A program made the position numbers and the translations under genes. From NCBI GenBank assembly GCA_963745035.1, contig CAVUVW010000002.1, positions 32,001 to 96,000 of the forward strand: DNA of 64,000 nucleotides, given 5' to 3'. The notes beneath the pieces are model-generated. The model was not told where the DNA came from. It did not search any database and was given only the letters and a program-made list of their open reading frames with translations. Every line of letters begins with the position of its first letter. The first letter of the stretch is position 1. This document shows positions 1,365-61,845 of the stretch, in pieces. This DNA comes from an uncultured delta proteobacterium (GTDB lineage: Bacteria > Desulfobacterota > Binatia > UBA9968).

Positions 1365-2348
1365 CTAAGGCAAATAGCCGCACTGGCGCCAGAAGCGTTC
1401 GGCGGCGGGATGGAGAGGCACTTCAAGGTGGCCCTGCGGCGTGTCGCGCACCATTTGCGCAAGCGGCAGCGGCGCTTCCCCGGCCCACGGAATTCGCGTC
1501 TTGCTTTCCTCCAGCGCGCGGCAAAAATCCGCGACCATAGCATCCGGCGTATCGCGGTGGGTGTAGATCGGCCAACCGCTGAAATCGAGGGTCGGCACAT
1601 CGGCAGCGAGCTTCGGAAAATATTTCTGTTGAATCAAGCCCCGTCGTAGACCCACCGTTTCCAATCGCGCGAGCATGGTTTCGTCCAACGAGAGAAAATT
1701 CATGCCCAACTCGAGCGCCATGTTGCCCCAGGCGCTGGCGCCCTCGTCAAAGATTGCGTCGATCTCGTCGCGCTGCATGGCGCCGATGCGGTTCGGTCCG
1801 TAGGCCATGCCAGCGTCGTAGCGCACTTGACCGCCCCAGGAGACGATGTCGTCCAGCGAAAAACCGGCGGCTTCGAGCACGTGATTGACGATTACGTGCA
1901 GCGAATGGTCCGGCTGCGCGCGCAGTGAAATCCGCAGCGGAAATTTGCGCGCGCGGATATCGCTGAACGATTGGAGACCCGTTTCCTGTTTGACGGCGAA
2001 CAGCATCGAGTCCAGGGACGGCAGGACAGCGATCACGCGCACAGGTATCGGCTCCGTGAAAGGCGCGCTGCCCAGCGCGGCAAGCTTGAGCATCATCGAC
2101 GGATTGATGATCGCAAAGTGCACGCGACCCTCGGCAACTTCTTGGACGGTGGCGGGGCTATCGCTCGCGAACAAGGTCACCGGCCAATCGGCGGCGCCCT
2201 GCTCGCGCAAACTGATGCGCGCCTGGAGATAAGGAAAATCTTTCCGATTGACGAGGGCTGAGGCGACTTCGAGCATGAGCCGCGACCGCGTCGTGTGCGG
2301 ATGCGTTCGCAAGCGGGTAGGTTTGAGGGTCAATTCGTCTTGGCTCAT
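1365..2348 (-). CDS. TAXI-family TRAP solute-binding protein
   Basis: Periplasmic-binding fold features, IDAIFDE, C-terminal VPLHPAAERFW typical of the TAXI family. Confidence 0.7.
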   Translation of the reverse strand: MSQDELTLKPTRLRTHPHTTRSRLMLEVASALVNRKDFPYLQARISLREQGAADWPVTLFASDSPATVQEVAEGRVHFAIINPSMMLKLAALGSAPFTEPIPVRVIAVLPSLDSMLFAVKQETGLQSFSDIRARKFPLRISLRAQPDHSLHVIVNHVLEAAGFSLDDIVSWGGQVRYDAGMAYGPNRIGAMQRDEIDAIFDEGASAWGNMALELGMNFLSLDETMLARLETVGLRRGLIQQKYFPKLAADVPTLDFSGWPIYTHRDTPDAMVADFCRALEESKTRIPWAGEAPLPLAQMVRDTPQGHLEVPLHPAAERFWRQCGYLP

Positions 2349-2485
2349 AACTACACCGTCGAGCTTCCGGAATACCTCCCGCAAAGCATGTCCTGAGACT
2401 TGTATGATGGATGTCGGCTCTGAACCGGGAGTGCTCTGCTACAATGCCCGAAACGCCAAAGGCATTGTGCAAGGAGGCACTCAGC

Positions 2486-3622
2486 ATGGGACACAAAGCG
2501 TTTATACCACAAGAGTACGATGTGTTTGCGGGCTTGGACGTAGATAAAAGAAGCATCTCGGTGACCTTTAGCAACCATCAGCAAGGATTTGTCCGATCGT
2601 TGCACATGCCGTACAGCGTGGAGCACTTGCTCAAGCACGTACGCAAGCATTATCCCGATCAGAAGGTTGCGTTTGTCTATGAAGCTGGACCGACGGGGTA
2701 TGGATTGTATGATGGGCTTTCGGCCCAGGGGTATAACTGCTTGGTGGCGGCACCTTCGATGATCCCTCGAGCTCCCGGGCAAAGAGTCAAAACCAATCGC
2801 CTCGACAGCCGAGGGTTGTCGGAGAGCTTGCGCGGTGGACAGTTGAAGAGCATTCACGTGCCTTCGCCCATTTATCGAGAGCTTCGCCATCTCACTCAGC
2901 TGCGCGACACCTTGGTCAGTGAAGTGGCGGGGATGAAGCAGCGGATTCAATCGCTGTTGCTGTTTGAGGGGATCGCTTTCCCAGCGGCTCCCGCTGGGAG
3001 CCGCTGGTCTTTGAAAGTGAAGAGCCAACTGAGGAAACTTCAGTGCTCTAAGAGCATGCGCTTTAAACTCGATCAGTTGCTCGACAACGTGGAGTTTTCT
3101 GAGAAGCAGGTCGTGAAAGTGACCAAAGAGATTCGCAAGCTCTGTCAGAACGATCCTGAACTGGCGCAGTGCATGAAGTATATGATGAGCGTTTGTGGCA
3201 TCGGCTGGATTGTGGCCAGTCAGCTCCTGGCTCGTATCGGTGATTGGCGGGAACTTAAAAACGTGCGTCAGCTGGCAGGGTTTTTGGGGCTGGTTCCGAG
3301 TGAGGACTCTACGGGAGAGAAAACCGATCGAGGCTCGATCACCCGCACGGGACATGGCCGCCTGAGGAGTAAACTCATCCAAGCGGCCTGGTCGGCGATT
3401 CGCCAAGATGGTGAACTTCGGGAGTTTTACAGTTCGGTATGCCGCAGACACCCGCGGCATATGGGTCCGCGAGTCGCCATCGTCGCCGTGGCGCGCAAGC
3501 TCAGCACCCGGATTGCTGCGGTGTTGATGGAACAACGGCCCTATGTGATGAGACAAAAAGTTCATTCAGCTCCTTTGACCCAAGAGGAGACATCGCCCCA
3601 GGGAACGGCTCGACGACTTTGA
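2486..3622 (+). CDS. IS110-family DEDD transposase/recombinase
   Basis: AGLDVDK, YEAGPTGY, KTNRLDS, GIG, GLVPSEDSTG and AIVAVARKL motifs; AAGGAGG RBS at 2471-2477. Confidence 0.95.
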   Translation: MGHKAFIPQEYDVFAGLDVDKRSISVTFSNHQQGFVRSLHMPYSVEHLLKHVRKHYPDQKVAFVYEAGPTGYGLYDGLSAQGYNCLVAAPSMIPRAPGQRVKTNRLDSRGLSESLRGGQLKSIHVPSPIYRELRHLTQLRDTLVSEVAGMKQRIQSLLLFEGIAFPAAPAGSRWSLKVKSQLRKLQCSKSMRFKLDQLLDNVEFSEKQVVKVTKEIRKLCQNDPELAQCMKYMMSVCGIGWIVASQLLARIGDWRELKNVRQLAGFLGLVPSEDSTGEKTDRGSITRTGHGRLRSKLIQAAWSAIRQDGELREFYSSVCRRHPRHMGPRVAIVAVARKLSTRIAAVLMEQRPYVMRQKVHSAPLTQEETSPQGTARRL

Positions 3623-3765
3623 GAACCGGGAGAAAGAAACTCCTGACGGTTCGATCCTTGAGACAGAGATCCCGGGGCTTTGTGCCTTAGAGAGGGGCGC
3701 ATTTTAAGTCAGTGTGACGGCCGGGTGCCGTGCCACGCATAGCAGCAAGTCTCTCTTGGCCGGGA
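3595..3765 (+). ncRNA. Putative bridge/seek RNA in the downstream non-coding end
   Basis: Two stem-loop domains whose loops match the reconstructed target (cgactttg 3614-3621, tccttgag 3655-3662) and the donor junction (catagcag 3738-3745, caagtct 3746-3752). Confidence 0.7.
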
Positions 3766-3806
3766 AAGAAGAAGGGATAAACTAAGAGCATTCGCGGTGT
3801 AGCGAC

Positions 3807-3812
3807 TTGACA
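3807..3812 (+). promoter_or_regulatory. Outward -35 (TTGACA) of the circle-junction promoter
   Basis: After excision at AG it lies exactly 17 nt from TATGAT (2403-2408). Confidence 0.75.
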
Positions 3813-3859
3813 TCCACATAGCAGCAAAGTCGAAGGGACGCGAAGCCCGCAAAGATTCT

Positions 3860-3958
3860 GTCATTTCGACCGCACGGGAGAAATCCTTCTTAGATCCCTC
3901 GCATTGCTCGGGATGACGGTCTTTGACCGTCACTTGGCGCCTTTGCGCCTTGGCGAGA
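3860..3958. repeat. REP-like cluster (gtcatttcgac...gggatgac; cttggcgcctttgcgccttggcg)
   Basis: Palindromic GTCA...TGAC unit, with a similar one at about 7512-7588, followed by a 9-mer periodic array. Confidence 0.6.
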
Positions 3959-3973
3959 GATAATCCGAACGGA

Positions 3974-4963
3974 CTACTTCGTCTTCAGCTCCCGATAGAC
4001 CTCGCGCGCCAATCTGAAATCCGCTACCTGTGAGATCGGCACGGACTGTTTCGCCTTCGTCACCCGCAAGCTTTCCTCAATGCCTTCCTGCAGCGCCTGG
4101 TCCGATGCCACGCCGCTATCGGTCCAGGTCTTAACCATCATATCGAAAGCCTTCTCGGCGACGTCGCGTTCAAGCTTCCACTTCGCCATGATCAGCGAGA
4201 TGGAATCCTGCCGCTGGGCGCGCGCATGGGCCATGCCTTTAAAGGCCACCGCGATCATGTTTTTGACCTGATCGGGCCGTTGCTGCAGCCAGCGATCGGA
4301 AACACCATACCCGCCATTGATGCTCTCCAAGGTTTCGCCCATGAAGGCTAGGCGGCGCAACCCCATGCGCTCCGCGAGAATATCCACCGGCAAGGTCAAC
4401 GTGGTCGCGTCAACGACGCCGGCTCGAAGGGCTTGGAGCCGGTCGGGTGTATTGCCGATGACTCGCAGAGTCATTTCCTTATCGGCGTCGATGCCAGCGT
4501 CCTTGAGCAAACGTCGCGACAGAAATGACTCTCCGGACGTAAGCGTGGCTACGCCCAGGACTTTGCCCTTTAGCTCCTTGATGGAGCGAATCTCTCCGCG
4601 CGCCATGAGCGAGAATAGCGGTCGGTCGTTATAGACCATCGCCAGCTTCACGGGCAGGCCGCGCACCGCGGCATTGATCGTCGTGCCGGCGAAGACCACA
4701 TATTGAATATCGCCGGAGATCAGCGCCGTTACCGCGATCGTCGGCGGGATATTGATCAGCTCAGCATCGAAGCCGGCCTGCTCGAAGAAGCGATTCTCTT
4801 TGGCGACGATCAACGGAAACGGAATCAACCCGCCGACGGAATAACCGATTCGCACCTTTTCCAGCTCCTTGCTGGCGGCAACAACCGGGGCGCTCGTGAG
4901 CGCAATAAAGATCGTCAGCGCGACAGCCGGAGCAAAAGCAACTCTAAGACTTCGTCGCATCAA
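3974..4963 (-). CDS. NMT1/SsuA-like ABC substrate-binding protein
   Basis: Signal peptide; IKELKGKVLGV and RLQALRAGVVDA motifs. Confidence 0.85.
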   Translation of the reverse strand: MMRRSLRVAFAPAVALTIFIALTSAPVVAASKELEKVRIGYSVGGLIPFPLIVAKENRFFEQAGFDAELINIPPTIAVTALISGDIQYVVFAGTTINAAVRGLPVKLAMVYNDRPLFSLMARGEIRSIKELKGKVLGVATLTSGESFLSRRLLKDAGIDADKEMTLRVIGNTPDRLQALRAGVVDATTLTLPVDILAERMGLRRLAFMGETLESINGGYGVSDRWLQQRPDQVKNMIAVAFKGMAHARAQRQDSISLIMAKWKLERDVAEKAFDMMVKTWTDSGVASDQALQEGIEESLRVTKAKQSVPISQVADFRLAREVYRELKTK

Positions 4964-31942: not shown

Positions 31943-32847
31943 ATGGAAAATCACGTCAACTATGCTGGCATGAAAGTGTCATCGACCGTTTGCCGATATG
32001 AGCATTGGTCAACGGATTGGTATCCAAAGTGGGCCACTCGCTTCGGACTGCCGACCCATCCGACCGGATCAGCGATCCATCGCAAGCACTGGAATTTTGC
32101 TCAATCGGCCAAGCTTTCGAGGAACGCGGGCTGCTGCGACCTGGCAAGCGCGGCGTGTGCTTTGCCGCCGGCCTAGAGTTTCTCCCGAGTGCTTTTGCCA
32201 ATCTAGGCGCCGATATCTTGGCGACGGACCTAGCCAGCGAGGGCGAATGGGCGGGGCAACACTCTAAATCCCATCTGGATCTGTTCCATCCCGGCATGGT
32301 CTCCCGCGAGATGTTCGATAAACACGTCACGTTCCAGCACGCCGACATGACGAATATCCAAGGCATCGAACACGGTGCCTACGATTTTGTCTGGAGTTCG
32401 TGTGCCTTCGAGCATTTGGGGTCGCTTGATGCCGGTCTCGATTTTGTCGTCAACGCCATGGGTCTGCTGAAGCCCGGTGGCACGGCCATCCACACCACGG
32501 AGTTCAATCTATCATCGAACGACGAAACGCTGACATCCGGTAGCAACGTCATTTATCGGCGCCGGGACATCGAAGCTCTGGATCATCGGTTACGGAAAAT
32601 TCGCTGCGGGCTTGAGCGTGTCGATTATGACGGCGGCACGCACCCATTTGATCTCGATTATGATAGCCCGCCTTTTTCACAAGACGGCAGGCCTCATGTA
32701 AAATTGGAACTCAACGGTTTCATTTCGACGTCAATCATCGTGATCATCCACAAGGGGCTAATCCCTACTCCGGCTTTGGCGACTGGCAGTATTCGACCGG
32801 ATCGGACTTGCGAACTGGGCACCGCTCACGGCGGCGACTCACAATAG
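31943..32847 (+). CDS. Class I SAM-dependent methyltransferase (frameshift near 32090)
   Basis: [29 protein letters not shown] and LKPGG motifs. Confidence 0.8.
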
Positions 32848-45000: not shown

Positions 45001-45161
45001 TGAAGAAAACGCCTCCGGCTTAGCGGATCGGCCAGGGCATCGATTTGGCTCGGATATTCCCGCTGCATGAACTCACGGAACTCTTCCGTCTGCGCCTCCT
45101 CCTCGAGGCTGCGCCAGAATTCACTTCGCACTGTGGCTGCGTCTATGTTGGGCTTCATCAA
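42069..45161 (-). CDS. actB: Alternative complex III subunit ActB (molybdopterin-oxidoreductase-like plus Fe-S domain)
   Basis: FWRSLEE, Tat SRRRFLQ, CVGCNACVVAC, CMHC..PC..VCP, CVGTRYCSNNCP, CTYC. Confidence 0.93.
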   Translation of the reverse strand: MMKPNIDAATVRSEFWRSLEEEAQTEEFREFMQREYPSQIDALADPLSRRRFLQLMAASLGLAGLGACTRAPAETIVPYVRQPEQLVPGKPLYFATAMTLRGYALGLLVESHLGRPTKVEGNPLHPASLGATDAFAQASVLTLYDPDRSRTATYLGRIRPWSDFLKALQPVLENHRKTGGAGLRILTGTVTSPTLASQLRSMLKEFPSARWHQYEPAGQHHARAGARLAFGTYAQTQYRLEQAAVILALDTEPLTWGAGSLRYIRELARGRALDEKRTEMNRLYAVESTPSSVGAVADHRLNLPPSAMEPFARALASRLGIGSSSTLSGDWGNWLDALAGDLQKHRGRSVVMVGEPQPPAVHALSHAINAALGNTGRTVVYTEPAEAEPVDEIASLRELGTAMERGDVTTLLILDSNPVYSAPADFDFAAKLRKLPLSIHLGLYENETAALCHWHIPAAHYLESWSDARAYDGTATIVQPLIAPLYGGKTAHEMIAAFSAAPQKSSHESVREYWSANAGKQAQDFERWWRKSLHDGVVEGSAFQPKSFTVKSAQLSGAGAAASAAQAQGKGETVPQAAEKQPAPPANAAPRLEIVFRPDPSIFDGQFANNAWLQELPKPLTKLTWDNAALLSPATAKRLGLNQDSGWRGGNLHADVIELRLQDRMVRAPICIVPGQADDTITLDLGYGRTRAGKVGSNIGCDAYRLRSSETLWSGAGVEIRRTGERYPLAVTQLHHNIEGRDLVRAGTLEQFRKNPHFAQHGGHNGEVPSLYPEYEYSGHAWGMAIDLSICVGCNACVVACQAENNIPVVGKSEVLRSREMHWLRIDTYFKGPPENPEAYYEPMLCMHCEKAPCEVVCPVTATAHSAEGLNDMVYNRCVGTRYCSNNCPYKVRRFNFLQYSDWQTESLKPMRNPDVTVRSRGVMEKCTYCVQRINHARIEAELEGGAMRDGDVVTACQQACPAQAIVFGDINDRNSLVSARKASPRNFGLLAELNTQPRTSYLAALRNPNLELASAAQGATEKSGEKNHK

Positions 45162-45177
45162 ATTTAAACCGAGACCA

Positions 45178-45400
45178 CGTTCAAGCCGTTCAATGGTTCG
45201 ACCGTTCGAGAAGCCTCACGGCAGGCTTCCTCGACGGCCTTGAGTTCCGAGCCCGTCGAGGAATCACCATGAGCGGCTGGAATTTTACGCTCATCCTGAG
45301 TTTATCGAAGGATGCTCCGTTCAACCGCTGCGCTCCGTTCAAATCGTCGCCCCGTTCGAAACGGCTTGAACGATTTGAACGACTTGAACTGCTTGAACGT
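45178..45400. repeat. Nested repeat cluster (GTTCAA/TTGAAC arrays with inserted palindromes)
   Basis: cgttcaa... arms; gctcatcctgagtttatcgaagga at 45289-45312; ttgaacgatttgaacgacttgaac. Confidence 0.7.
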
Positions 45401-45407
45401 GTTCCCA

Positions 45408-46067
45408 TTATCGATGGCACGTCGAACAGCTCGTGAGAGCAGCCGAGCTTTTGATGTTGTATTCCTTCATCAACGCTCGGCCGAGTCGCACTTGATCGGC
45501 GCCCGGCCGCCAGCTCATGTTAAACACCTGCTCGCGCGGCCGCAAAAACCGCTCGGGCGCGCGATGGCACTCGAGACACCATTCCATCTGCAGCGAGGCG
45601 GCTTGCCACATGAGCTGCATCTGGTCCACCGGGCCGTGGCAGGTCGAGCAGCCGACGCCCTTTCGCACGTGGATGCCGTGATTGAAGTAAGCGAAGTCCG
45701 GTAGATTGTGCACGCGCGTCCAGCGTATCGGCGTATTGGTCCGAAAACTTTCGCGCACGGGCGCGAGAACCTCGCTGGTCGACCAGATTTGTGAATGGCA
45801 ATTCATGCACACTGCAGTCGCCGGGATGCCCGCGAACGATGAGACTTCCACCGAAGTGTGGCAGTAGCGGCAATCGATGCCGAGACCGCCCACATGATGA
45901 TCATGGCTGAATGGCACGGGCTGAGCGCGTGTGACGTTTTGCTCGGTGACGTAAGAAGAGCGATTGATTGCAGCAATCAGCCAAAGAAGGCCGATCACCA
46001 AAAAAAGCGCGCCGAATATACTCAGTCGAGAAAGGGTGTTGGTGCTGCGGTGAAAAATCTGCGCCAT
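45408..46067 (-). CDS. actA: Alternative complex III pentaheme cytochrome ActA
   Basis: Five CxxCH motifs (CRYCH, CMNCH, CSTCH, CLECH, CSTCH) after an N-terminal TM helix. Confidence 0.93.
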   Translation of the reverse strand: MAQIFHRSTNTLSRLSIFGALFLVIGLLWLIAAINRSSYVTEQNVTRAQPVPFSHDHHVGGLGIDCRYCHTSVEVSSFAGIPATAVCMNCHSQIWSTSEVLAPVRESFRTNTPIRWTRVHNLPDFAYFNHGIHVRKGVGCSTCHGPVDQMQLMWQAASLQMEWCLECHRAPERFLRPREQVFNMSWRPGADQVRLGRALMKEYNIKSSAALTSCSTCHR

Positions 46068-60375: not shown

Positions 60376-61845
60376 ATGCATAAAACGATACTCGACTTAT
60401 GTCCCGAATCGTCATCTGCCCAGGATCTCGCCGCGGCTGCGTCGATATCCGCTCACCCTGGGCCTGACGAAGGGTTCCGAGCTCCCCGCACGCGCGCTGC
60501 GCGTTTCCCCGCGCTCCTGATGAGCGGCGCGATCGCCTTTGCGCTTTCCGCGTGCAGCCTCGCGCCCAAGTACGAGCAGCCGCCGATGGATATTCCCGGC
60601 GGCTGGTCGAGCGTCCCGGGCGTCGGCGTGGCCGCTGCGCCGAGCGCGACGCCTTTTTGGCGGGAGCTCGGCAGCGCCGAATTAGACGGTTTGATCGAGA
60701 CCGCGCTGGCGGAAAATCGCGACCTCGAAGCCGCGCTCCATCGCATCGATCAGGCGCGCGCCCAGGCAAAAGTCGCCGCCGCGCCGCTCTATCCGACCGT
60801 CAACGCCAGCGGTTCGGGCTCGAAAACTTATCAAGACTCGAAGAATACCGAGTCGCTGCGCGGCGCCGGCAGCATCAGCTACGAGCTCGATCTCTGGGGC
60901 AGAAACCGCAATCAGGCGCTCTCCGCCGGTTACCAGGTCGATGCCACCCGCTTCAATCGCGAGGCGCTGCGTCTGGTCATCACTTCGGACGTGACCAATT
61001 TCTACGCGCTGATCTTGAGCCTCAACGACCGCATCCGCATCGCCGAGTTCAATCTGAAAACCGCCCAGGACATCCTCCGCATCATCGAAGCGCGCTACGC
61101 CCAGGGCGCGGTGTCGGGGCTGGAAGTTTCCCAGCAGCGCGTCGCGGTGAACAATTTTCGCACCGCGCTTGCATCGCTGGTCGAAGCGCGCAGCACCGGC
61201 GCCAATGCGCTGGCGATCCTGCTCGGCAGGGCGCCGCAAAATCTCGGCCTGCCGGGCGGCGAGCTCGCTTCGCTGCACATGCCGCGGATCGATCTGACCC
61301 CGCCCGCGACTTTGCTGACGGCGCGCCCGGACATCCAGAGCATCGAAGCCGTTCTACGCGCCGCCAACGCCGACATCGGCGCGGCCCGCGCGGCGTTCTT
61401 CCCGTCTCTGACCCTGGGCATCGACTCGGCGATCGCCGCCGGCTTTGGCGGCCCGGCCGTCGCGGCGACATCGCTGACGTCGAGCCTACTTGCGCCGATC
61501 TTCACAGGCGGAAGGTTGACGGGCAATCTCGAAAGCGTCACCGCGCGCCAGAGAGAACTGGCGGCGCAGTACCAGCAGACGGTGCTGGTCGCCTTCCAGG
61601 AAGTCGAAGACGCGCTCGCCGCGCTCAAGAGCAACGACGAGCAGGCCGCGCTGTCCCTGGAATCCGTCAAGGAGTCACAGAACGCCTACAATATCGCCAA
61701 GGCGCGCTTCGACGCCGGCGCCATCGACTATCTCACCCTGCTTGAGACCCAGCGCAGCCTTTTCCAGGCGCAGGACGATCAGATCGCGATCAATCAGGGA
61801 CAGCTGCAATCGTTCGTGCAGCTAAGAAAAGCCCTCGGCGCGTAA
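60376..61845 (+). CDS. NodT/OprM-family outer-membrane efflux lipoprotein (start may be downstream)
   Basis: Lipobox LSAC, YELDLWG, RPDI, AFQEVED. Confidence 0.9.
   Translation: MHKTILDLCPESSSAQDLAAAASISAHPGPDEGFRAPRTRAARFPALLMSGAIAFALSACSLAPKYEQPPMDIPGGWSSVPGVGVAAAPSATPFWRELGSAELDGLIETALAENRDLEAALHRIDQARAQAKVAAAPLYPTVNASGSGSKTYQDSKNTESLRGAGSISYELDLWGRNRNQALSAGYQVDATRFNREALRLVITSDVTNFYALILSLNDRIRIAEFNLKTAQDILRIIEARYAQGAVSGLEVSQQRVAVNNFRTALASLVEARSTGANALAILLGRAPQNLGLPGGELASLHMPRIDLTPPATLLTARPDIQSIEAVLRAANADIGAARAAFFPSLTLGIDSAIAAGFGGPAVAATSLTSSLLAPIFTGGRLTGNLESVTARQRELAAQYQQTVLVAFQEVEDALAALKSNDEQAALSLESVKESQNAYNIAKARFDAGAIDYLTLLETQRSLFQAQDDQIAINQGQLQSFVQLRKALGA

Follow-up and report, generated by a model that had tools for sequence, protein, structure and literature searches.

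An IS110-family insertion sequence with IS1111-type layout and a predicted guide RNA directed at a hairpin repeat

Introduction

Can an insertion sequence that lies inside a palindromic repeat be read as having been guided there by an RNA of its own? The question is raised by a locus in a 64,000-nucleotide stretch of DNA from an uncultured delta proteobacterium (positions 32,001 to 96,000 of contig CAVUVW010000002.1), which we call the window and number from its first letter. A first-pass annotation, made from the letters alone, had proposed that this locus is an IS1111-type bridge recombinase whose RNA guides, for target and donor alike, can be read from the sequence. IS110-family RNA-guided recombinases are under development as genome-writing tools, and structures and most of the rules are known from IS621, a member of the other subgroup.

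Our analysis indicates, with a probability of roughly 0.88, that window positions 2398-3824 are a recently active IS110-family insertion sequence of IS1111-type layout, which would be guided toward a hairpin repeat by an RNA that it encodes itself. Three observations stand above chance: five genomic copies share their ends and sites, the guides covary with the flanking DNA, and the RNA scaffold is more conserved than the body of the transposase gene, tnp. Every sequence feature listed in the first-pass annotation was found where that annotation had placed it. The main interpretation is strongly backed by comparative evidence, and the element appears to be a well-supported further example of the RNA-guided IS110 systems that are already known.

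Results

Five genomic copies share their ends and a target repeat

When the host genome (7.43 Mb in 28 contigs) was queried with the element, five near-identical copies were found, which differ among themselves in nine alignment columns. Their ends are the same in all five: each copy starts ...TGAG|ACTTGTATGATGG and finishes ...ACATCCACATAGCAG|C.., and each has the dinucleotide AG at both junctions (2396-2397 and 3823-3824 in the window), just where the first-pass annotation had placed it. Because the left junction and the right end have nothing but AG in common, the element is 1427 bp long (2398-3824, + strand, including the AG of the right end) and has made no target duplication. Indeed, the flanks of the copies rejoin into an intact repeat, as befits site-specific insertion without duplication. 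The open reading frame (ORF) of 378 codons is intact in three of the five copies, including that of the window; of the two defective copies, one carries an insertion of 2 bp close to the ORF's 3' end and the other three 1-bp deletions. The annotation of this genome therefore gains five copies of one insertion sequence, three of them intact, within an intergenic repeat family.

The layout agrees with the proposed assignment to the IS110 family and to the IS1111 type: a short left end (88 nt from the left end to the ATG), subterminal inverted repeats, and a long noncoding part downstream of tnp (202 nt from the stop codon to the right end). The left subterminal repeat, TATGATGGATGTC, lies at 2403-2415 (+ strand); its core forms an exact inverted pair, TGGATGTC/GACATCCA, and the extension of that core was read from the sequence. 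The right end (3807-3824, + strand) comprises TTGACA at 3807-3812, the subterminal repeat GACATCCACATA at 3809-3820, and a terminal GCAG with the AG core at 3823-3824. Left and right repeats match in 12 of 13 positions, with one extra A. In the IS1111 subgroup such repeats are described as about 11-13 bp long, with asymmetric extensions of 7 bases on the left and 3 on the right (PMC11187229); here the terminal extensions are AGACTTG (7, counting AG on the left) and GC (2), the right one being one base shorter. If the right and left ends were joined in a circle, TTGACA would come to stand 17 nt from TATGAT (2403-2408, the first six bases of the left subterminal repeat), and the two would form the -35 and -10 halves of a predicted circle-junction promoter. 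This geometry, too, is present as it had been described. Conservation is 0.89 at the left end and 0.91 at the right, in the set of 69 distinct full-length relatives from which all column conservation values given below are taken.

All five copies sit at the AG inside a hairpin repeat of the form GTCCTGAG|C..GTCGAAGG, at sites resembling GTCCTGAG|C.AAGTCGAAGG. In the window, the left target half, GTCCTGAG, occupies 2390-2397 (+ strand) and ends in the AG core; the right target half, CAAAGTCGAAGGG, occupies 3825-3837 (+ strand). Comparison of the five copies shows that every left flank ends in TGAG, four of them in GTCCTGAG and the fifth in CCGTTGAG. On the right, the flanks read CAAAGTCGAAGG (two copies), CGAAGTCGAAGG, CTAGTCGAAGG and CAAGTCGAAGA or, when only their starts are considered, CAAAGTCG (two copies), CGAAGTCG, CAAGTCG and CTAGTCG. 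Collecting the copies and aligning their flanks thus upholds both the AG core and the repeat target.

Exact-pattern scans of the genome also found unoccupied paralogous sites, which read, for example, GTCCTGAGCGAAGTCGAAGG. The reconstructed empty site aligns to unoccupied repeats without a gap over the junction, as at positions 999061-999170 of host contig C14 (83% over 117 nt). The target motif is a hairpin, composed of a 5-bp stem, GAG, C-N(2-4)-G, TCGA and the other half of the stem, and the stem covaries between repeat copies (TCCT/AGGA, CCCT/AGGG, TGCT/AGCA, TGGT/ACCA). A strict form of the pattern occurs at 137 places in the host genome, compared with 31 in the reversed sequence; the motif is found in several different conserved contexts and was intergenic at both places checked. 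The spacer from AG to TCG is four or five bases long among targets: with four, the guide also pairs with the core G, and with five, as in the window, there is no core pairing. Two other places in the window that had been named as related copies, 45289-45312 and 60449-60475, do belong to the family (at about 45291 and about 60456, the second being degenerate), but neither fits the element's right guide. Searches of Rfam returned nothing around the repeat at 45150-45450 (E up to 10), nor in the whole window at gathering thresholds.

Three observations concern the surroundings of the element. Two of the genomic copies lie 20 kb apart in the same orientation (C14:192694-194117 and C14:212582-214008), with unoccupied target repeats near the second of them, at C14:211328 and C14:216929; such a pair could be a substrate for deletion or composite movement. 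To the right of the window copy (3838-3960), and at about 35 places in the host genome, at least two other short dispersed repeat modules make up a mosaic in the intergenic DNA; one centres on tgtcatttcga..cgggagaaatcc, the second on ggcgcctttgcgcc..gagagataatc, and each occurs on many contigs, independently of the target hairpin. Finally, an RNA-library contig of run X15 contains the left flank up to AG (2397) followed by CAACGTCGAAGG, an unoccupied repeat of the target family in that sample or in a related organism.

Two guides in the predicted target loop covary with the flanks

The comparison took in 88 loci: the five genomic copies and 83 relatives with 74-94% protein identity, of which three came from species genomes and 80, the best 80 of 489, from metagenomes. 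Ten of the 88 lacked an anchor at one end and were dropped, and the 78 kept represent 70 distinct insertion sites. The tnp family is large in metagenomes (5383 of 8000 scored candidates at E <= 1e-30), and the elements of the relatives are mostly 1423-1444 bp long. Relatives of 45-60% identity with different ends were found in none of 401 genomes of the window's phylum, which held only relatives of 29-37%; a second draw of 401 genomes, centred on the genome that carries locus L008, yielded, at E up to 1e-60, none outside that genome itself. Genome G264 has a multi-copy element that is more distant, and it was set aside as too far from the window element.

The right-target guide, CGACTTTG (3614-3621, + strand), complements the top strand of the right flank CAAAGTCG and shares bases with the final sense codon of tnp and with its stop codon. 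The first-pass annotation had recognized this segment as the exact reverse complement of caaagtcg (3825-3832), and covariation now confirms it. The guide consists of CGA plus five variable bases. Over 69 distinct sites (locus L034, which has a 10-nt guide segment, was excluded from this 8-mer test), a mean of 7.04 of the 8 positions are complementary to the right flank: 29 sites score 8, 25 score 7, nine score 6, four score 5, and single sites score 3 and 2. Random re-pairing of guides and flanks gave 4.95 +/- 0.14 with a maximum of 5.46, and none of 2000 permutations reached the observed value. The result was similar when one random site was taken for each of the 26 guide types (6.79, compared with 4.80 +/- 0.21 after shuffling). 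Pairs of guide and flank include CGACAGGC/CCTGTCG, CGAGAGCC/GCTCTCG, CGATAAAC/TTTATCG, CGACTAAG/CTTAGTCG and CGGCTGGC/CCAGCCG. Even the "constant" CGA shifts with the flank, CGG occurring alongside CCG.

The left-target guide, TCC[T]TGAG (3655-3664, + strand), is a same-sense counterpart of the left flank TCCTGAG in which base 3658 bulges out, and has AC at 3663-3664 as a putative handshake. Its pattern among relatives is X1X2X3-X4-X5-GAG (3655-3662). In the bulged register, in which X4 is left out, 3.16 of the 4 variable positions match the flank over 63 sites; shuffling gave 2.52 +/- 0.09, and again none of 2000 permutations reached the observed value. The unbulged register matches at only 2.03 of 5 positions. 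Because the bulged register fits and the unbulged one does not, the "one extra base" of the first-pass annotation is a real bulge at 3658, and the left guide proposed there is likewise confirmed. Base 3659 and flank position -4 are identical in 63 of 64 sites, and AC at 3663-3664, which is invariant, equals the first two bases of the left end. Covariation of loop segments with targets had been named at first pass as a check on the whole proposal. Both target guides do track the flanks, which confirms the hairpin repeat family as the target; in having a target loop with two guides that covary with the target halves, the element shows what characterizes a bridge RNA or seekRNA.

The right-target guide also lies within the last codons of tnp, and retargeting therefore rewrites the tail of the protein as well. 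In the window copy the guide itself creates the stop codon, TGA at 3620-3622, so that the overlap of target loop and stop codon noted at first pass is real. The stop codon falls inside the guide, as in the window, in eight of 58 distinct relatives, and in 47 of the 58 the ORF extends past the guide and stops within the inner hairpin of the target loop (...RR-x-x-EPGExNS). The two residues that the guide encodes are hypervariable among relatives.

Two oddities turned up among these relatives. At L006 (122-170) and L008 (1480-1530), the flank directly to the left of the element is tandemly duplicated (21 bp and 12 bp, respectively), and the duplication takes in the element's first two bases (..GAGAC..); these may be footprints of an earlier insertion or excision. 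The metagenome relative L088 has 1647 bp between the same ends, about 210 bp above all others, and may carry an insertion.

A conserved scaffold overlaps the 3' end of the ORF

The guides lie in a conserved RNA-like sequence of about 180 nt, which overlaps the 3' end of the ORF and continues downstream. A consensus structure calculated with RNAalifold from 59 sequences has 43 pairs, nearly all of them kept. It predicts a long-range closing helix, P1, in which 3580-3591, inside the tnp ORF (conservation 0.97), pairs with 3749-3759; all of its 10 predicted pairs are kept, and no pair shows a two-sided change. Its 3' strand, with 3746-3748, takes in the segment that the first-pass annotation had read as caagtct. 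Inside P1, the target loop has an outer stem (3595-3603/3671-3678, kept in 57-59 of the 59 sequences) and an inner hairpin (3623-3652), in which one pair (columns 50/81) shows a two-sided change. Both had been drawn at first pass, the outer stem as 3595-3604/3670-3678, and both are found in the consensus. A middle hairpin follows (3681-3701), and then the inner hairpin of a donor loop (GTG..ACGG / CCGT..CAC, 3713-3736), of which seven pairs are kept in 58-59 sequences. All of these features are on the + strand. As only one of the 43 pairs shows a two-sided change, the fold is supported by conservation and not by covariation.

Conservation by region traces the same outline. It is 0.97 at 3579-3613, 0.75 in the right-target guide, 0.93 in the inner hairpin of the target loop, 0.83 in the left-target guide, and 0.91-0.97 in the rest of the scaffold; the tnp body has 0.85 and the spacer at 3760-3800 has 0.75. 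Third codon positions have a conservation of 0.90 in the last 73 nt before the guide, compared with 0.71 in the tnp body, and the end of the ORF must therefore be held by something besides the protein. Rfam returned nothing in 2300-4000 at E up to 1.

Assembled contigs from metatranscriptomes of two studies reach, over about 3560-3700, 10-20 times the depth of tnp contigs, whereas the corresponding figure for a DNA run is at most about 2.7. These contigs derive from relatives and differ at guide positions, and RNA-library cover elsewhere in the element is thin. We regard this depth as a weak hint of RNA.

The donor loop and the alternative readings of the RNA

On the donor side, a left-donor guide can be read at 3739-3747 (+ strand). 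ATAGCAG (3739-3745) is identical to the right end including the AG core; after it come a handshake base, 3746, and perhaps another, 3747. The terminus of the right end agrees with ATAGCAG in 66 of 69 sites, and the preceding base, 3738, is variable whereas the right end is not. Base 3746 is the same as the first right-flank base in 68 of 70 sites (C/C 52, G/G 13, T/T 3). In IS621, a handshake base matches the partner DNA after strand exchange, and flipped-out guide bases have been described (PMC11208158). Because base 3746 follows position +1 of the right flank and not the left end, it acts as a handshake base would and is not part of a right-donor guide.

For the right-donor guide, we lean slightly toward TAAGTC (3705-3710, + strand), on the 5' strand of the donor loop, which complements G|ACTTG of the left end with one U-G pair. 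Its position mirrors that of the right-target guide, each being followed by A and then by the inner stem. Pairing of TAAGTC with the left end is possible in 46 of 65 sites, and locus L008 has CGAGT together with ACTCG; at L099 and at 11 ACCTG ends, however, there is no compensation by TAAGTC, and covariation gives no proof. When the left-end variant (+3, T or C) was compared with RNA columns by mutual information, only lineage-linked columns emerged, none of them complementary.

The first-pass annotation had drawn the donor loop differently, with a stem at 3718-3725/3755-3762 enclosing two directly adjacent guides, of which one, catagcag, would read the right end and the other, caagtct (3746-3752), the left end. 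The first of the two is present at 3738-3745 and its ATAGCAG matches the right end, but the second fails at its first base, which tracks the flank. The complementarity that suggested it is real: CAAGTCTC (3746-3753) is a perfect 8-nt complement of GAGACTTG (2395-2402), full complementarity between the 7-mer and the left end is seen in 40 of 66 sites, and 3748-3752 (AGTCT, the complement of AG plus ACT) is invariant in 66 sites. An inverted match of 8 nt is, however, at chance level, as 1451 bp hold 12 such pairs of at least 8 nt; position +5 of the left end is an invariant G, which base 3746 does not follow; and 15 sites that have G or T at 3746 together with an ACTTG end mismatch the left end at both 3746 and 3747. 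The stem can be drawn in the window, but across 59 relatives only 54.6% of its cells pair, a figure that shuffles equal, and sliding it by one column gives 78.6%. In the consensus structure, moreover, 3749-3759 is taken up by pairing with 3580-3591. We therefore consider this loop improbable, and a right-donor guide at 3748-3752 equally so; the probability left over from the two candidate segments goes to neither or both of them.

Somewhat less probable still is that the element makes a short target-seeking RNA only (about 3575-3705, with the target loop), that the protein reads the ends through the subterminal repeats, and that 3705-3760 is used otherwise, in processing, in stability or as a terminator. 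Siddiquee et al. purified seekRNAs, 82-96 nt long, whose only matches are the two to the target, and suggested that end recognition may be different in IS1111-type elements (PMC11187229). The present element does have subterminal inverted repeats matched over 12 of 13 nt, and the depth of the RNA-library contigs drops after about 3703, although contigs cannot reveal RNA ends. Similarly, the middle hairpin with the TTTT after it (3681-3705) scores as an intrinsic terminator in the window, but the T-run is absent from most relatives. Two facts argue against the short RNA: 3713-3759 is conserved like the target-loop scaffold (0.91-0.97), and base 3746, which directly follows a copy of the right end, tracks the first target base, as would scarcely be expected of a segment that does not read DNA.

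That protein or DNA homology alone picks the target, the guide-flank matches being by-products of, for example, gene conversion between element and target, is very unlikely: a partly palindromic target does yield some element-flank correlations (base 3617 equals flank +1 in 65 of 70 sites), but the match to the flank is a reverse complement for the right guide and a same-sense copy for the left, both guides lie in loop strands between conserved stems, 26 guide types track their flanks, and the arrangement of guides has been shown by experiment for the family (PMC11187229, PMC11208160, PMC11208158).

The transposase belongs to a clade with an unusual active site

The tnp gene (2486-3622, + strand) encodes an IS110-family DEDD-type transposase of 378 amino acids, with AAGGAGG at 2471-2477 and the stop TGA at 3620-3622; a start at 2486, and not at 2411, is consistent with the N-termini of relatives. 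The protein matches PF01548 (2.1e-14) and PF02371 (1.7e-21), both above curated cut-offs, and the NCBIfam model NF033542, "IS110 family RNA-guided transposase" (1.9e-64, 218 bits with a cut-off of 140). Its best named match is a transposase of the ISEc45 family, of the same length (31.4% identity, E 1e-33). In a plasmid collection it matched the IS5075 family with 23.2% identity (E 1e-6 to 2e-6) and the IS4321 family with 25.1-25.5% (E 2e-7 to 5e-7); both of these we take, on the strength of a paper title, to be IS1111 members. The "IS1111-type" label therefore holds for the layout but less well for the protein, which is closer to the ISEc45 family, and we have filed the element as IS110 family with IS1111-type organisation.

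Among structures in the PDB, tnp matches ISCro4 and IS621 (8wt6), its KTNRLD aligning with their KTDAVD and KTDTVD (KTDxVD). The catalytic positions are D18, E66, N104 and D107, with Thr276-Gly277 at the nucleophile position. The protein thus departs from the canonical D-E-D-D tetrad and Ser-Gly loop at the third position (N104) and at the nucleophile (T276). The N in KTNRLD, which the first-pass annotation had flagged as unusual, is real and typical of the clade. It is present in 12 of 12 aligned relatives of 78-93% identity. Over 100 full-length representatives of 50%-identity clusters, the third position is N in 17, D in 82 and T in one, and the N-proteins cluster among the nearest relatives of tnp. 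N104 is, then, a clade-wide variant and no lesion of one copy. The two residues are coupled: 16 of the 17 N-proteins have T, and 76 of the 82 D-proteins have S; the proteins being related, this may reflect a single evolutionary event. In IS621, D102 forms a hydrogen bond with G242 and holds the S241 loop (PMC11208158); by analogy, Asn could keep such a bond. Replacement of SG by TG has been reported for IS1111-type transposases (PMC11187229). A literature search for Asn or Thr variants in IS110 gave nothing relevant, and the article text considered here makes no mention of the Asn.

Discussion

We favor a reading in which the element carries an RNA that would guide both target choice and donor recognition. 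By analogy with IS621 and the IS1111 seekRNA elements, the transposase would excise the element as a circle, and the joined ends would set TTGACA and TATGAT 17 nt apart and so drive tnp and an RNA at or beyond its 3' end. The same analogy suggests an RNA of about 3580-3760, closed by a long-range helix and carrying one loop for the target and one for the donor. In the target loop, the 5' strand (3614-3621) would pair with the top strand of the right target half; the 3' strand (3655-3662), with one base bulged, would pair with the left half on its bottom strand, AG core included, and would be followed by two bases that match the element's left end. In the donor loop, ATAGCAG (3739-3745) on the 3' strand would pair with the bottom strand of the right end and core, with the next base matching the first base of the target's right half; the left end would be read, probably, by TAAGTC (3705-3710) on the 5' strand. 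Recombination at AG, through chemistry like that of the known elements, would insert the element into a hairpin-type intergenic repeat (stem-GAG-C..G-TCGA-stem) without duplication. Relatives would retarget to variants of the repeat by changing five guide letters.

Several results weigh against this reading. In the target loop, the right guide has no pairing to the AG core here, the RNA having AG where CT is needed; three of the five genomic insertions show a mismatch with the guide or a spacer shorter by 1 nt; and the left guide fits only with a bulge, its signal being modest. On the donor side, the left end hardly varies, and its ACCTG variant (11 sites) is compensated by neither candidate for the right-donor guide. 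The permutation figures for the guides overstate their significance, because related sequences are not independent. As for the RNA itself, the helices are almost invariant, with one two-sided pair in 43 and a covariation term of -0.12 kcal/mol. The folding check that had been suggested at first pass came out negative, the minimum free energy of 3580-3824 being ordinary in comparison with shuffles (z = -0.9). Neither the ends nor the strand or level of an RNA can be read from assembled contigs, and breaks near 3578-3598 occur in DNA contigs too. The circle junction was not seen in the assembled contigs of four public runs, an absence that proves nothing. Lastly, the third DEDD residue is N, whereas mutation of D102 in IS621 abolished recombination (PMC11208158).

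Comparison with characterized systems places the element among them. It resembles the IS1111 seekRNA elements ISEc11, ISPa11, ISKpn4 and ISPst6 as described by Siddiquee et al. 2024 (PMC11187229) in its long noncoding region downstream of tnp, its subterminal repeats with asymmetric extensions, and its duplication-free insertion. It shares with them the order of the guides, the top-strand complement (3614-3621) lying 5' of the bottom-strand match (3655-3662), as well as the nucleophile motif GL-P----(S/T)G, with T here, and natural retargeting through changes in the guide segments. It differs in the length of its protein (378 aa, compared with 330-350 aa), in its extensions (7 + 2 and not 7 + 3) and in the N at the third DEDD position. 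Its RNA, moreover, is predicted to begin inside the ORF, with the right-target guide translated or, in the window copy, ending the ORF. A donor-reading segment with a handshake base is evident here, whereas the passages of that paper considered here describe none for the short seekRNA.

With the IS621 bridge system (Durrant et al. 2024, PMC11208160; Hiraizumi et al. 2024, PMC11208158) the element has in common the two protein domains, a 2-nt core shared by ends and target, and the geometry of the circle-junction promoter. In both, each loop has, or here is predicted to have, one guide per DNA strand, handshake bases follow the 3'-strand guide, a flipped-out base lies inside a guide, and the target is repetitive and palindromic. 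Here, however, the RNA lies at the opposite end of the element; flipping the element equalises the arrangement and swaps "left" and "right". Further differences from IS621 are the core (AG here, CT there), a right-target guide that does not cover the core in the window copy, a predicted single long-range helix around both loops in place of two separate stem-loops, and catalytic D-E-N-D with Thr in place of D-E-D-D with Ser. Like ISPpu9 and ISPpu10, IS110-family elements that target REP sequences (PMC12288879), the present element occurs in several copies per genome at a fixed point of an intergenic palindromic repeat; it differs from them in host, repeat and protein clade. Separate RNA-only modules were not found in the host genome, where the element query returned the five full copies only.

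It is an even bet, in our judgment, whether the element stands for a large soil clade of bridge recombinases that departs from the known systems in three ways at once: a D-E-N-D/Thr active site, one closed multi-branch RNA, and a right-target guide in the last codons of tnp. If so, each retargeting would rewrite or, as here, truncate the C-terminal tail of the protein, and guide evolution would be tied to protein sequence. The coupled change of Asp to Asn and Ser to Thr in an evidently mobile clade bears on the role of the third "D". The relatives provide a natural retargeting series, in which 26 types of right-target guide occur with 74-94% identical proteins, all at variants of one hairpin repeat. 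This series reveals the programmable positions of the RNA, the bulged base and the handshake base in an element whose RNA lies at the right end. For specialists, the interest lies in the D-E-N-D/Thr active site, the guide within the ORF and the single closing helix around both loops.

A minor observation concerns the wider kinship of the protein. Residues 180-317 of tnp give a sub-threshold match to NF052498, "TIGR-Tas system RNA-guided endonuclease" (34 bits with a cut-off of 100, E 2e-8), in line with a link that reportedly exists between IS110 and other RNA-guided proteins.

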